Source of the DNA: a bacterium | GTDB taxonomy: Bacteria > Patescibacteriota > Minisyncoccia > UBA6257 > GWB1-50-10 | Length of the DNA: 64,000 nt | Direction of reading: 5' to 3' | Assembly: GCA_021814165.1 (NCBI GenBank) | Contig: JAKAIX010000003.1 | Location: 14,551 to 78,550 of the forward strand | Shown here: piece after piece, positions 9,832-62,960 of the stretch | How positions within the stretch are numbered: position 1 is the stretch's first letter | Layout of the letters: each line of letters starts with the position of its first letter | The notes under the pieces: model-generated | Told to the model about the DNA's origin: nothing | What the model saw: the letters and a program-made list of their open reading frames with translations, nothing else | Database searches by the model: none | Made by a program: the position numbers and the translations under genes

Positions 9832-10908
9832 ATGGCAATCGATTTTAAGGAGAAGTTGAACGAGTTACTGCTCGAAACGGCGAAGCAAAACGCCTCCGAC
9901 ATCCATATCGCGGTAGGAAGACGCCCCACAATCAGGGTGGACAGCGTGCTTATTCCTCTCCCGAACGAGCCGATACTTACTAAAGAAGAAGCCGAGGGAA
10001 TCGTTTTTGCGCTTCTGACCGAAGAACAGAAAAAGACGTTCTTAAACGACCGCCAGCTCGATTTTTCTTTCAACTACGAAGACAAAGCGCGTTTTCGCGT
10101 AAACACTTATTTCCAGCGCGGATTTGTCGCCGCGGCGCTCCGGCTTATTCCAGCGCAGATCAAGACGCTTGAGGAGCTGAATATGCCGCCTCTTCTCCAC
10201 GATTTCGCGAAGATGAATCAGGGCTTCGTATTGGTGGTGGGGCCGGCTGGGCACGGAAAATCCACGACGCTTGCGGCGCTCTTGGATGAGATCAATCACA
10301 AGAGAAACGATCATATTATCACCGTTGAGGATCCGATAGAATATATTTTTTCGCAGGACAGATGTATTGTTTCGCAGAGAGAAGTCGGCATGGACACTCA
10401 TTCGTTCCATGACGCGCTTCGCGCCATTCTCCGGCAGGATCCCGATGTTATCATGGTAGGAGAAATGCGCGACCCGGAGACGATCGCGACGGCCATGACC
10501 GCCGCCGAGACGGGACACCTGGTATTTTCCACGCTCCATACCAACTCCGCGTCGCAGACGATCGACCGCATTATCGACAGCTTCCCGCCGAATCAGCAGG
10601 GACAAATTGTTTCCCAGCTCGCCTCGACTTTGGTTGCAATCGTTTCGGAGCGTCTCATTCCCCGAATCGGCGGAGGGAGAATTCCCGCAACCGAGATCAT
10701 GCTCGCGAATCCGGCGATACGGAATCTTATCCGGGAGAAAAAGATTTATCAGATCGATCTCGTGATAGAAACGAGCGTACAAGAGGGGATGATGTCCCTG
10801 AACCGATCGCTCGTAAGTCTGGTGCGGAGGAAAGAAGTGGCGCTTGATCAAGCGGAAACCTTTTCTCTGAATCCTGCGGAGTTGAGAATTCTCCTTGAAA
10901 GGAGTTAA
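9832..10908 (+). CDS. pilT: twitching motility ATPase PilT
   Basis: 358 aa with Walker A GPAGHGKSTT, the His-box region FSTLHTNSA, and PilT/PilU family length. Confidence 0.9.
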   Translation: MAIDFKEKLNELLLETAKQNASDIHIAVGRRPTIRVDSVLIPLPNEPILTKEEAEGIVFALLTEEQKKTFLNDRQLDFSFNYEDKARFRVNTYFQRGFVAAALRLIPAQIKTLEELNMPPLLHDFAKMNQGFVLVVGPAGHGKSTTLAALLDEINHKRNDHIITVEDPIEYIFSQDRCIVSQREVGMDTHSFHDALRAILRQDPDVIMVGEMRDPETIATAMTAAETGHLVFSTLHTNSASQTIDRIIDSFPPNQQGQIVSQLASTLVAIVSERLIPRIGGGRIPATEIMLANPAIRNLIREKKIYQIDLVIETSVQEGMMSLNRSLVSLVRRKEVALDQAETFSLNPAELRILLERS

Positions 10909-10928
10909 AGAATTTCAAAGAAAAGCGT

Positions 10929-12137
10929 ATGGCGAAGTTTAATTACAAAGCGCGCACGAAAGACGGAGGACTTCAGGTGGGGAACGTGGAGGCATCGAGC
11001 CGCGACACGGCTTTGAGCATTCTTCTAAGCCACCAGCTTTTCGTGCTGAGCCTGGAACCCGTGGTCGAAGACAACTGGTACACGCGCGTACTCGATTTCT
11101 TCAAACGGGTGAAGACGCAGGATCTCATGATTTTTACCAGGCAGTTTTCAACGCTTCTCGCATCCCAGGTGCCGCTCTCGGACAGCTTGGCAAATCTCTA
11201 CAAGCAGACGACGAAGCCGGTTCTCAAGGAGGCGTTGTATGAGATCGCAAACGATGTTGATGCGGGATTTTCGCTTTCCCAGGCGCTCGAGCGTCATCAC
11301 GGGATATTCTCCGAGTTTTACGTGAACATGATCAAGTCCGCGGAAGTGACGGGGCGTTTGAGCGAAGTGTTAAGTTTCCTTGCGGATTATCTCGAGAAGC
11401 AGGCGACGCTCGTTTCCAAGGTAAAGAACGCGCTTACCTACCCCGCGTTCGTGATCGTGCTCTTCGTGGTCGTGGTGATTGTGATGGTTACAATGGTGTT
11501 CCCGCAAATTCTCCCGATTTTCAACGAATCGAAAGTCGAGCTTCCCTTCCTTACGAAGGTGCTTTTGGGAGTGAGCACGTTCATGGCAAACTGGTGGTGG
11601 GTACTCTTGATCGCCTTCGGGGTGGCTGTCGTGCTTCTCGTCGATTATTTTCAAACGAACGAAGGAAAAGCGGTGCTGGACACCCTTTCCCTGAAGGTGC
11701 CGGTTTTGGGACCGATGTTCCAAAAGCTTTATATCGCGCGGTTTGCCGAGTCGGCGCGAGTGCTCATAAAAGGAGGTCTTACCATTCCGCAGGCGGTTGA
11801 GATTTCTTCCCACACGATAGGAAACGTGGTGTATCAAGAACGGCTTCATGAAGCGGCGGAACAGGTGCGGAAAGGGAAGCTGCTCTCGCAAACCCTGATA
11901 GGACTCGAAGAGTTCCCCCCGCTCGTGGGGCAGCTTATTAGCGTGGGAGAATCGACCGGCCGTCTTGAGGATCTCCTGGGGAAGGTGACCGACTTCTATA
12001 GCCGCGAGGTGGACGATATGGTGAACAATCTCGTGACCCTGATCCAGCCGATCCTTATGGTTATTATCGGAGGAGTAATCGCGGCACTTTTTGCCTCTAT
12101 TCTTCTTCCGATCTACAGTCTGTCCCAGTCGTTCTAA
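10929..12137 (+). CDS. pilC: type IV pilus inner-membrane platform protein PilC (GspF family)
   Basis: Two GspF-type repeats with three TM segments and 402 aa length. Confidence 0.85.
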   Translation: MAKFNYKARTKDGGLQVGNVEASSRDTALSILLSHQLFVLSLEPVVEDNWYTRVLDFFKRVKTQDLMIFTRQFSTLLASQVPLSDSLANLYKQTTKPVLKEALYEIANDVDAGFSLSQALERHHGIFSEFYVNMIKSAEVTGRLSEVLSFLADYLEKQATLVSKVKNALTYPAFVIVLFVVVVIVMVTMVFPQILPIFNESKVELPFLTKVLLGVSTFMANWWWVLLIAFGVAVVLLVDYFQTNEGKAVLDTLSLKVPVLGPMFQKLYIARFAESARVLIKGGLTIPQAVEISSHTIGNVVYQERLHEAAEQVRKGKLLSQTLIGLEEFPPLVGQLISVGESTGRLEDLLGKVTDFYSREVDDMVNNLVTLIQPILMVIIGGVIAALFASILLPIYSLSQSF

Positions 12138-20167: not shown

Positions 20168-20202
20168 GAAAAAAAACCGCTCATTCGAGCGGTTTCTTTT
20201 TT

Positions 20203-20280
20203 TGGCGCAGTGGACGGGAGTTGAACCCGCGATCTCCGCCGTGACAGGGCGGCGCTTTAGACCAACTAAGCTACCACTGC
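20203..20280 (-). tRNA. tRNA-Asp (GTC), CCA encoded
   Basis: Cloverleaf on the reverse complement: acceptor gcagtgg/ccactgc, anticodon stem ccgcc/ggcgg with loop CTGTCAC, T-loop ttcaact, discriminator G. Confidence 0.85.
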
Positions 20281-20314
20281 ACTATTTCTGGTCTTTAGTG
20301 TAGCAAATGAAGAG

Positions 20315-21016
20315 TTATTTTGACAAACTGCCCTTAGTTAAAGAGAGCACAGCATCACGTAATCCCAAGACCTTATATTGAAGACGGGAGCTTTTTCTTA
20401 CTCGGATAACCAGGGTGCCAAAATGATTAAAAAAATTATCATATACTTTCTTATTTTTGGATTTTATAAAAATCGTTTTGTTGAATTGTCTTTTTGGTAC
20501 CCCGGTGATACGTGACCAGTGGAATAGTAACTCCTTTTCTCTTTGTGAGTGAATATTATTGATCATAACATTCAGGATTAAATCTCCTTTCTTCACCTTT
20601 AGTATTTTTATAAGCCAGAGGAGTGCGAGACGAACGAGCTCAGGGTTGGAATTGGTAAGTTGGAATTTATGTCCGCTTTTGTTTCCTTCTCCCAGATGGA
20701 GACCTATTCCCAGCATTAATAAATCGCGACCATCTACTTTCCGAACAATTTGTGTGCCTTCTTTTTGATACTCTTCCATAAGATGCATTTTCTTTTCTCT
20801 TTGCATCCTTGCCCCAAGCAATCTACCTTTATGTCCGCCTTCCACCATTCGACGCCTTAAGTTTTCCAGTTGTCCTTTCGTGAGAACTATATCTGTACAC
20901 CAAGCACTTGCAGTACTCTTCGAAATTCTTAGCTTGTCCGCAATTTCTTTTATGCTTGATCCCTTTCTCCTCATTTCCGATGCGAGTATTTTTTCTCTTG
21001 ATTTTGCCATAGTCAA
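20315..21016 (-). CDS. low-GC HTH protein with LAGLIDADG-like motif (putative free-standing homing-endonuclease-like / mobile gene)
   Basis: The N-terminus has a resolvase-type HTH (GSSIKEIADKLRISKSTASAWC). The body carries LLMLGIGLHLGEGNKS followed by a hydrophobic helix, resembling a LAGLIDADG core. The locus is markedly AT-rich versus flanking DNA and wedged between tRNA-Asp and tRNA-Met. Confidence 0.5.
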   Translation of the reverse strand: MTMAKSREKILASEMRRKGSSIKEIADKLRISKSTASAWCTDIVLTKGQLENLRRRMVEGGHKGRLLGARMQREKKMHLMEEYQKEGTQIVRKVDGRDLLMLGIGLHLGEGNKSGHKFQLTNSNPELVRLALLWLIKILKVKKGDLILNVMINNIHSQREKELLFHWSRITGVPKRQFNKTIFIKSKNKKVYDNFFNHFGTLVIRVRKSSRLQYKVLGLRDAVLSLTKGSLSK

Positions 21017-21121
21017 ACAACCAGAATAGTGCTTACATTATACCACAGCGGAGGTACGTTTTCTGATTGCCAACGGTTTAATAATTCCTTCTTGGAGGTT
21101 TCTAGAAAGACTGGCTTTTAG

Positions 21122-21195
21122 TACCGGGGGTGGGAATCGGACCCACGACCTCAACTTTATGAGTGTTGCGCTCTAACCAACTGAGCTACCCCGGC
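21122..21195 (-). tRNA. tRNA-Met or tRNA-Ile2 (CAT anticodon), elongator type
   Basis: Reverse complement gives gccgggg-ta-gctc-agttggtta-gagc, anticodon loop ctCATaa, T-arm gtggg-tccgatt-cccac. The 31:39 A-A mismatch and an unusual UCC in the T-loop are noted. Confidence 0.65.
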
Positions 21196-21272
21196 GTACT
21201 TGAAGTATATCGTGCCTCTTTCCAATGCGTCAATAAAATTGTCTTTTGTGGATATTTCTGATACTATATGCG

Positions 21273-21345
21273 CGCGGGGAGGAGCAACTGGTCGCTCGTT
21301 TGGCTCATAACCAAAAGGCTGCGGGTTCGAATCCCGCCCCCGCAA
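21273..21345 (+). tRNA. initiator tRNA-fMet (CAT)
   Basis: Acceptor CGCGGGG with a C1-A72 mismatch. The sequence closely parallels E. coli tRNA-fMet (ggagca...gctcataacc...ggttcgaatcc...cccccgcaa). CCA is not encoded. Confidence 0.7.
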
Positions 21346-21360
21346 CAAATAAGGTTAAAA

Positions 21361-62826: not shown

Positions 62827-62910
62827 CTTTATAAAAGAATCATTGGCTAAGCCGGAGCATTTTTACCCCGGCTTAACTGTTTTTATGGGCTTGCTTTTTA
62901 TCAACTCCGC

Positions 62911-62960
62911 CTCCCTTTTAAGGAGAAGGTCGCAGGTTCGAGTCCTGCTGGGGGCACAAA
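62911..62960 (+). repeat. direct repeat of the tRNA-Lys 3' half (att-like integration scar)
   Basis: ctcccttttaaggagaaggtcgcaggttcgagtcctgctgggggcacaa is identical to tRNA-Lys(TTT) positions 62020-62071, from the anticodon stem through 2 nt past the 3' end. It is followed by a terminator hairpin gcccacc-ttacga-ggtgggt-TTTTT. Confidence 0.8.

Follow-up and report, generated by a model that had tools for sequence, protein, structure and literature searches.

A family of helix-turn-helix proteins with a LAGLIDADG-like domain in bacterial tRNA clusters: candidate free-standing homing-type endonucleases

The locus and the protein

The subject of this report is an AT-rich open reading frame (ORF) that lies among three tRNA genes in a bacterium of the Patescibacteriota. 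The stretch analyzed, hereafter the window, comprises 64,000 nucleotides (nt) (GenBank assembly GCA_021814165.1, contig JAKAIX010000003.1, positions 14,551 to 78,550). The ORF encodes a protein in which a helix-turn-helix (HTH) is joined to a single LAGLIDADG-like domain, and its relatives form a large family that adjoins tRNA genes. The gene order around it is ligA, gatC, and gatA on the plus strand; tRNA-Asp, the ORF, and a tRNA(CAT) gene on the minus strand; a second tRNA(CAT) gene and pheS on the plus strand; and recG on the minus strand. The ORF and the tRNA genes, each of the latter called by both ARAGORN and Rfam, are placed as follows:

20203-20280, minus strand: tRNA-Asp(GTC), CCA encoded in the gene, 34 nt beyond the ORF stop
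20315-21010, minus strand: ORF of 231 amino acids (aa) encoding an HTH, a long helix, and a single LAGLIDADG-like domain; ATG at 21010, TAA at 20317-20315
21121-21195, minus strand: elongator-type tRNA(CAU), Met or Ile2, 110 nt upstream of the ORF
21273-21346, plus strand: divergent, initiator-like tRNA-fMet, intron-less, with a C1/A72 mismatch

The plus-strand tRNA(CAT) gene reads CGCGGGG...CCCCGCAAC, and its C1/A72 mismatch is as in initiator tRNAs. An earlier note on this DNA, made from the sequence alone, had described an AT-rich ORF between tRNA-Asp and a tRNA(CAT) gene, with an initiator tRNA just beyond, and both the composition and the arrangement are borne out. The ORF has a GC content of 0.384 and a third-position GC (GC3) of 0.358, versus a GC3 of 0.57-0.63 in six neighbors (ligA, gatC, gatA, pheS, recG, and SLT). 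The note had read the ORF as 233 aa over 20315-21016; the gene is real, but alignment with 40 homologues moves its start from TTG 21016 to ATG 21010 (MAKS...), which gives 231 aa. It is not a chance reading frame, since at least 865 clusters match the family in an exhaustive profile search (E ≤ 1e-30), dN/dS is 0.03-0.14, and the AlphaFold2 (AF2) model has a pLDDT of 93.5. The identical protein (P0001) is present on 16 contigs. The note had also proposed a check for additional copies; the 64-kb window was searched, and the gene is single there. The protein is organized as follows:

residues 2-37 (20900-21007, minus strand): N-terminal HTH, three short helices in the AF2 model
residues 45-88 (20747-20878, minus strand): one long helix, about 44 residues, between the HTH and the nuclease-like domain
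residues 94-230 (20321-20731, minus strand): LAGLIDADG-like domain, topology alpha-beta-alpha-beta-alpha-beta-beta-alpha plus an extra helix
residues 97-111 (20678-20722, minus strand): motif LLMLGIGLHLGEGNK, with a putative metal-binding Glu108 (20687-20689) and Lys111 (20678-20680)

The AF2 model, built with 41 homologues, consists of a three-helix HTH, the helix of about 44 residues (47-90 in the 233-aa numbering, pLDDT >90), and an alpha/beta domain (residues 96-232 in the same numbering) that reaches a pLDDT of 94 when modeled alone. Judging from the model, the long helix may act as a spacer or as a dimerization element. The N terminus matches Pfam HTH_23 (E 7.6e-6) and HTH_7 (E 0.004), in line with the resolvase-type HTH that the earlier note had proposed, and HTH_23 is matched by 39 of 41 family members.

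The C-terminal domain is tied to LAGLIDADG proteins by profile searches. When the family profile (A1) was run with hmmsearch against all PDB sequences, I-DmoI was the sole significant fold (E 4e-5), and a domain-only, more diverse profile of 89 sequences (A4) again retrieved I-DmoI alone (E 1.3e-4). The family sequence G-L-Y-L-G-E-G-s-K aligns onto the second I-DmoI motif, G-L-Y-V-A-E-G-D-K, with its E117 and K120. In the model, LLMLGIGLHLGEG lies at the end of the helix formed by residues 96-110, which is the position of a LAGLIDADG-type motif, with an acidic residue followed by Gly. Among 93 nonredundant relatives, down to 27% identity, the acidic residue is found in all 93 (92 Glu and one Asp), as are the Gly and the Lys; N120, W165, and G198 are likewise conserved. 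The earlier suggestion of a LAGLIDADG core with Glu in place of Asp therefore finds support in both the alignment and the conservation. To judge from these sequences, the pattern is one expected of an active site, not of a purely structural or DNA-binding remnant.

The LAGLIDADG core fold is alpha-beta-beta-alpha-beta-beta-alpha. LAGLIDADG-type structures listed for the domain are an intein endonuclease domain (6.9), I-Tsp061I (6.5), E-DreI (6.4), I-CeuI (6.3), PI-PfuI (6.2), I-Vdi141I (5.5), and I-DmoI (5.2), with I-CvuI and I-MsoI further down. Single-sequence phmmer searches against PDB, NCBIfam, and PHROGs gave matches at the level of the HTH or of noise only. The Pfam models of WhiA (LAGLIDADG_WhiA and HTH_WhiA) did not match the window protein and were absent from the top 25 families of the family members. 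Overall, the C-terminal domain is very probably a divergent LAGLIDADG domain.

The family, its tRNA neighborhoods, and the tRNA-fMet intron

A word-indexed search returned 42 homologues, the best name among them being "helix-turn-helix domain-containing protein." The exhaustive profile search extends to 4159 clusters at E ≤ 1e-10, and a metagenome scan confirmed at least 494 relatives. Their contexts are strikingly uniform: the typical site is a cluster of fMet, Met(CAU), and Asp tRNA genes in Patescibacteria, often close to gatCA, pheS, or ligA. At 52 of 67 evaluable loci the gene directly upstream of the ORF is tRNA-fMet, in either the same or the divergent orientation, and a same-strand tRNA(CAU) gene starts within 60 nt of the ORF stop at 37 of 74 evaluable metagenome loci. 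In the clade of the window (with L003, L091, and L099), the ORF follows an elongator-type tRNA(CAU) and precedes tRNA-Asp.

The ORF and the downstream tRNA gene often overlap. The overlap is exactly 10 nt at 11 of these metagenome loci, or at 13 with L008 and the phage-like L172, and in these the TAG stop of the ORF is U8-A9-G10 of the tRNA (L008:5687-5696, L103, L104, L105, L107, L108, L113, L120, L125, L133, L142, and L172). At other loci the stop falls inside the D-loop of the tRNA, with overlaps of 21-30 nt. Processing of an overlapping tRNA by RNase P would yield a non-stop mRNA.

The tRNA-fMet gene beside the ORF frequently carries a group I intron. Rfam detects one directly upstream of the ORF at 13 of 20 loci tested, and an nhmmer profile made from 12 of these 13 finds the same element across the data set. 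The intron splits tRNA-fMet between U33 and C34 (exon ends ...GGCT and CATAACC...), and the split genes are missed by ARAGORN. The 5' end of tRNA-fMet is typically 60-135 nt from the ORF ATG, and the pair is usually divergent. An intron-containing tRNA-fMet adjoins the ORF at 36 (54%) of 67 evaluable nonredundant metagenome loci and an intron-less one at 16; of the remainder, two have the arrangement seen in the window and 13 have no detected upstream tRNA(CAU). Examples of the intron (RF00028) are L105:3688-3874(-), L123:3699-3885(-), L134:3680-3894(-), and L148:3657-3864(-), with about 30 further loci. The profile has no match in the window, and the window-type clade and the phage-like tRNA arrays described below are also without a nearby group I intron. 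Within ORF clades, the ORF is kept while the presence of the intron flips. The family is thus large, unannotated, associated with tRNA genes, and frequently linked to an intron-containing tRNA-fMet.

Introns of this kind have been surveyed. A Met(CAU) intron at position 33/34 occurs in 2 of 95 complete Patescibacteria genomes surveyed (PMC13011429), against the 36 of 67 family loci given above. The same survey reports that Patescibacteria tRNA introns self-splice in vitro and mostly lack endonuclease genes, and hence judges them poorly mobile (PMC13011429).

Several intron-less initiator-like tRNAs that adjoin family ORFs have C33 (loop CCCATAA), not the near-universal U33, at the 33/34 insertion site (L095:646-717, L096:269-340, L097:959-1030, L106:3862-3933, L111:1646-1719, and L133:689-762). 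This variant may represent a resistance allele. At another locus, a canonical two-motif LAGLIDADG ORF (LGFFVADGNL ... VRGYFDGDGHV; L014:8517-9191(+)) stands beside a partial group-I-intron-like match (L014:9226-9405(+)), and that locus also contains a tRNA-fMet with an intron (10673-10985) but no family ORF.

Second, diverged members occur within some of the same loci (L110:4587-5213(+), L114:2-406(+), L140:945-1622(+), and L150:5007-5513(-)). The one in L110 lies just upstream of tRNA-Thr and that in L114 just upstream of tRNA-Ile(UAU); the one in L150, on the opposite strand, lies just before tRNA-Thr(CGT), and no tRNA was detected in L140. Five proteins of 500-576 aa (P0138, P0142, P0146, P0147, and P0175) match the family profile two or three times each; either tandem fusions (single-chain pseudo-dimers) or gene calls that run through a tRNA could explain this.

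More distant relatives are found on phage-like contigs. Sixteen of them (27-36% identity) lie on IMG/VR contigs of 25-497 kb, inside dense arrays of 12-22 tRNA genes that they interrupt (up to 22 tRNAs in 8.5 kb); the adjoining genes are tRNA-Val, Lys, Ala, Glu, Cys, and others. Counting paralogues and distant members together, the tRNA genes that they precede are those for Thr, Ile, Val, Lys, and Ala. These contigs also carry a transfer-messenger RNA (tmRNA) within the tRNA array (L186:5148-5567(+)), a Thg1-like tRNA-His guanylyltransferase (L173:2941-3741(-)), and an R2K ATP-grasp gene (L172:764-2398(+)). An exact-pattern search of IMG/VR for empty tRNA-tRNA junctions matching two of the phage-like loci returned nothing.

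Empty sites, rearrangements, and expression signals

Related genomes differ in whether the ORF is present at a defined site. A full-length ORF beside gatA is absent from all 16 nearest GatA relatives (58-66% identity), among which the only tblastn match is a truncated relative in L020. L016 has an empty site: only 3 nt separate its tRNA-Met from its tRNA-Asp, and the divergent tRNA-fMet is present as in the window. The earlier note had proposed to look for such an uninterrupted tRNA-Asp to tRNA-Met spacer. The fMet and Met genes are 9-39 nt apart in L017-L022, giving empty junctions there, and in L017-L020 the gap between Met and Asp holds unrelated genes. The family has two insertion positions within the tRNA cluster, and its distribution is patchy. 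In L020, which is the nearest GatA relative, the truncated family-domain relative (L020:8354-9079(-)) lacks the HTH and lies upstream of tRNA-Met, and an intron-containing tRNA-fMet on the other strand (L020:8857-9090(+)) overlaps its apparent N terminus.

In three comparisons of related genomes (L105 versus L113, L097 versus L106, and L097 versus L111), the block from tRNA-fMet through the ORF to tRNA-Met has the opposite orientation with respect to its flanks. The block itself is collinear and both flanks are inverted, with breakpoints at the ends of tRNA genes.

ORF GC is below that of the flanks at 62 of 63 loci. A recent arrival from an AT-rich donor, as a general explanation for the AT-richness of the family, was rejected because ORF GC tracks host GC (r 0.84, slope 0.76). 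The window copy (14 GC points under its flanks) and L008 (20 points under) are compositional outliers that may have come from a recent AT-rich donor.

The predicted expression signals of the window are as follows, the two sites upstream of tRNA genes being consensus matches only:

21037-21045, minus strand: extended -10 TGGTATAAT, 26 nt upstream of the ATG, with no clear Shine-Dalgarno (SD) sequence after it
21016-21071, minus strand: possible weak hairpin, GGCAATCAGAA / TTCTGGTTGTT, around the -10 and ending 5 nt ahead of the ATG
21204-21233, minus strand: sigma-70-like site TTGACG-18-TATACT (10/12) upstream of tRNA(CAU)
20297-20326, minus strand: promoter-like site TTGTCA-18-TACACT with TG, over the last ORF codons, upstream of tRNA-Asp
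20174-20195, no strand assigned: GC-rich hairpin flanked by A and T runs, after tRNA-Asp

The TATAAT that the earlier note had assigned to the ORF is present as this extended -10, a putative promoter. A two-hexamer promoter scan does not list it; family loci conserve a -10 box at the corresponding position. From its sequence, the hairpin at 20174-20195 could be a terminator for gatA on the plus strand and for the tRNA/ORF unit on the minus strand. The promoter-like site of tRNA-Asp is embedded in the end of the ORF, such that deletion of the ORF would remove it, an arrangement of the kind noted for T4 endonuclease genes.

Many family loci share a layout ahead of the ATG: a -35-like TTGnnn, a 17-nt spacer containing GAACCnnnn, TATAAT, about 20 nt, nnnnGGTTC, and 2-5 nt before the start codon (for example, L097:1044-1086, L107:2714-2759, and L182:3942-3990). 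The two arms form a hairpin whose 3' arm covers an SD-like GGAGG/GTGGG and whose 5' arm lies within the promoter spacer. In an alignment of 21 sequences (A2), which were picked for a visible hairpin, so that the covariation is to be read with caution, 90% of cells are paired, double changes occur at six pairs, and none of 500 shuffles attains the covariation score; pairing falls to 34-56% in slid controls. With the arms so placed, the ribosome-binding site (RBS) would be hidden in read-through transcripts from the upstream tRNA and free in transcripts from the ORF's own -10. An RBS-sequestering hairpin with its own promoter inside is known for T4 I-TevI-III, segB, and mobE (PMC2988022). For the window copy, the hairpin has a nonsignificant folding z-score of 0.09, and the RBS-hairpin model is not upheld significantly.

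Elsewhere in the window, Rfam but not ARAGORN calls a tRNA at 62879-62956 (plus strand), at 34.8 bits and barely over threshold; the 5' half of this tRNA has an atypical look.

Possible functions and comparison with known systems

The best explanation, to which we assign a probability of roughly 0.58, is that the protein is a free-standing, homodimeric LAGLIDADG-type endonuclease with an accessory HTH and that its gene is a homing-type element of tRNA clusters. In favor of this reading are the conserved motif residues, the association with tRNA genes and with the split tRNA-fMet, the empty sites in relatives, the T4-like expression design of family loci, and an ORF GC below that of the flanks. 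It would be a single-domain, I-DmoI-like, site-specific DNA endonuclease with Glu as a metal ligand and the HTH on a long helical arm. A homodimer is most likely, as for other single-domain LAGLIDADG enzymes: the two LAGLIDADG helices would pack together, forming a pair of active sites above the minor groove, and each HTH would add contacts to flanking DNA. In rRNA insertions of the candidate phyla radiation (CPR), LAGLIDADG enzymes of this single-domain, homodimeric kind are frequent and have activity (PMC11270868). The lifestyle would be selfish and homing-type: the enzyme would cut within a tRNA gene, or a junction of two, that is highly conserved, and repair-mediated copying could use the tRNA genes on either side as homology arms, T4 SegB being an analogue. 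At loci with the intron, collaborative homing may operate, in which the nuclease would cut intron-less alleles and the ORF-less tRNA-fMet intron at 33/34 would protect the resident allele; the presence of the intron beside the ORF in over half of the family fits this model. The window copy would be expressed from its own extended -10 inside a tRNA unit that putatively runs from promoter to terminator, next to a tRNA-fMet without the intron. One candidate target, a palindrome formed at a junction by the 3' acceptor strand of one tRNA and the 5' acceptor strand of the next, is not evident by eye in the window or in L016.

A number of observations weigh against an active homing endonuclease. As to the fold, Foldseek gave no significant LAGLIDADG match for the full or the domain-only model (TM ≤0.43), Pfam LAGLIDADG models matched neither the window protein at E ≤ 10 nor appeared in the top 25 families of 41 members, and the predicted topology carries an extra helix. 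The comparison with LAGLIDADG folds proposed in the earlier note gave a profile match to I-DmoI and no recognition of the fold by Foldseek or Pfam. As to mobility, no target site is derivable from the sequences, tblastn against 50,697 deposited phage genomes found no family relative, and no near-identical ORF copies occur in unrelated backgrounds. Strains lacking the ORF were sought with the exact GatA of the window, and all 16 contigs recovered carry it, with no within-species polymorphism. ORF identity mostly follows flank identity (for example, 78% versus 79-86% and 58% versus 59-64%), ORF GC follows host GC as given above, and the low dN/dS extends to lineages with an intron-less tRNA-fMet. 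Many genomes, including that of the window, combine the ORF with an intron-less tRNA-fMet whose anticodon loop is canonical, so that a simple model in which the nuclease cuts the intron-less fMet gene needs resistant variants. Co-divergence with the flanks, low dN/dS, and GC tracking together point to long vertical residence under selection, not to the gain, decay, and loss of a purely selfish homing endonuclease gene. On balance, the family has the appearance of an old element, resident for long and under selection, that was not recently dropped into the genome of the window. The earlier suggestion that a mobile homing endonuclease had landed here has partial support: the empty sites in relatives, the patchy distribution, the inverted blocks, the low ORF GC, and the relatives on phage-like contigs speak for mobility, and fixation in all 16 contigs of the species, co-divergence with the flanks, and strong purifying selection speak against it.

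Such long residence raises the possibility of a domesticated, LAGLIDADG-derived DNA-binding protein that, like WhiA, no longer propagates itself and works for the host at the tRNA cluster; it could, for example, regulate the tRNA operon or its own promoter, or be a nuclease that promotes the recombination or upkeep of tRNA genes. Catalytic residues have been lost in domesticated proteins of the WhiA type. In this family, however, the catalytic-type Glu and Lys positions are invariant in 93 of 93 relatives; moreover, the distribution is patchy with empty sites, several paralogues in a locus stand beside different tRNAs, and relatives occur inside phage-like tRNA arrays. That the inverted repeat covaries in its inner part suggests pairing in RNA and not an operator bound by protein. 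We regard domestication as doubtful on these grounds, although it is the strongest of the alternatives. The same purifying selection, together with the pairing of the ORF start with an intron-containing tRNA-fMet at about 60-135 nt in 54% of evaluable loci, would also suit a trans-acting maturase that helps the tRNA-fMet intron to fold or splice, as fungal mitochondrial LAGLIDADG maturases do, and that is kept since the initiator tRNA is essential; the lack of ORFs in most Patescibacteria tRNA introns, as reported in the survey (PMC13011429), agrees with this. Yet intact, constrained ORFs (dN/dS 0.03 for L005/L007 and 0.12 for L097/L111) accompany an intron-less tRNA-fMet in the window and at no fewer than 16 other loci, and this persistence of constrained ORFs without introns disfavors a maturase. 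The flipping of the intron inside ORF clades, the distant members in tRNA arrays and the clade of the window with no group I intron nearby, the invariant catalytic residues, and the in vitro self-splicing described in the same survey (PMC13011429) also speak against it, and we consider it quite unlikely.

A remnant or accessory HTH protein of a transposable element of the IS630, IS3, or resolvase type, rather than a LAGLIDADG nuclease, is highly improbable. It is suggested by weak NCBIfam HTH matches to IS630, IS21, and IS3 transposases (E 4e-5 to 0.02, well short of the cutoffs) and by the label "transposase" given to one homologue by JGI. These matches, however, span residues 14-94 only, and no DDE or serine-recombinase domain was found with Pfam or NCBIfam; the C-terminal 140 residues are the best conserved and match I-DmoI, and the gene is single in the window.

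Our literature search returned no paper describing an HTH-LAGLIDADG family that adjoins tRNA genes. Each component is known, from LAGLIDADG enzymes and collaborative homing to RBS hairpins and free-standing endonuclease genes in tRNA regions; what is new is their combination, the group of hosts, and how large the unannotated family is. Despite their tiny genomes, Patescibacteria are unusually rich in introns and homing endonucleases. As a tentative proposal, the Pfam-invisible HTH-LAGLIDADG family might be the missing trans-acting mobility factor of the ORF-less Patescibacteria tRNA introns, which would amount to stable and widespread collaborative homing in cellular chromosomes; or it might be a conserved nuclease that maintains or reshuffles tRNA clusters, its expression gated by the tRNA operon through the RBS hairpin and the stop inside the next tRNA. 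If the protein does cut DNA, this would explain the movement or rearrangement of such introns and tRNA clusters, provide a bacterial-chromosome counterpart to T4 SegB, and offer a new scaffold, an HTH arm with one LAGLIDADG domain, of possible use in engineered nucleases. If it is domesticated, the fold would have been recruited twice independently, once in WhiA and once here, in the latter case with the active site kept.

Among known systems, the closest in sequence is I-DmoI, whose C-terminal domain shares the aligned motif, with about 58 residues aligning. I-DmoI, an archaeal rRNA-intron enzyme, is a two-domain monomer and is intron-encoded; the window protein has one domain, is encoded by a free-standing gene between tRNA genes, and, unlike I-DmoI, has an extra helix in the core and an N-terminal HTH on a long helix. 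I-CreI, I-CeuI, I-MsoI, and I-ShaI, the last from CPR rRNA insertions, are single-domain homodimers that match Pfam LAGLIDADG_1/2/3 and are encoded in introns or insertions of rRNA genes. The window family, in contrast, has no Pfam LAGLIDADG match at the thresholds tried, carries an HTH, and adjoins tRNA genes.

In genetic design, the family most resembles T4 SegB, a free-standing nuclease gene between tRNA-Arg and tRNA-Ile with its target in the tRNA intergenic region, where an RBS-sequestering hairpin allows only its own transcripts to be translated (PMC2988022); family loci have the same design. SegB, however, is a GIY-YIG enzyme of a phage with demonstrated homing, whereas the window family is LAGLIDADG-type and resides in bacterial chromosomes, and its homing is a proposal. 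Pairs of a free-standing endonuclease gene beside a gene with an ORF-less group I intron are known from F-CphI with the psbA intron and mobE with the nrdB intron (PMC2790892, PMC6083498, PMC2988022), and the pairing of the ORF with an intron-containing tRNA-fMet at 36 of 67 family loci is alike. Those pairs involve other nuclease families, in phages, and cleavage at the intron insertion site has been shown for them, whereas it is hypothesized for the window family; the window copy, unlike these pairs, has no intron partner. Finally, in WhiA both LAGLIDADG domains are degenerate and lack catalytic residues, and the HTH is C-terminal, whereas the window protein has one domain with invariant Glu and Lys positions and an N-terminal HTH.

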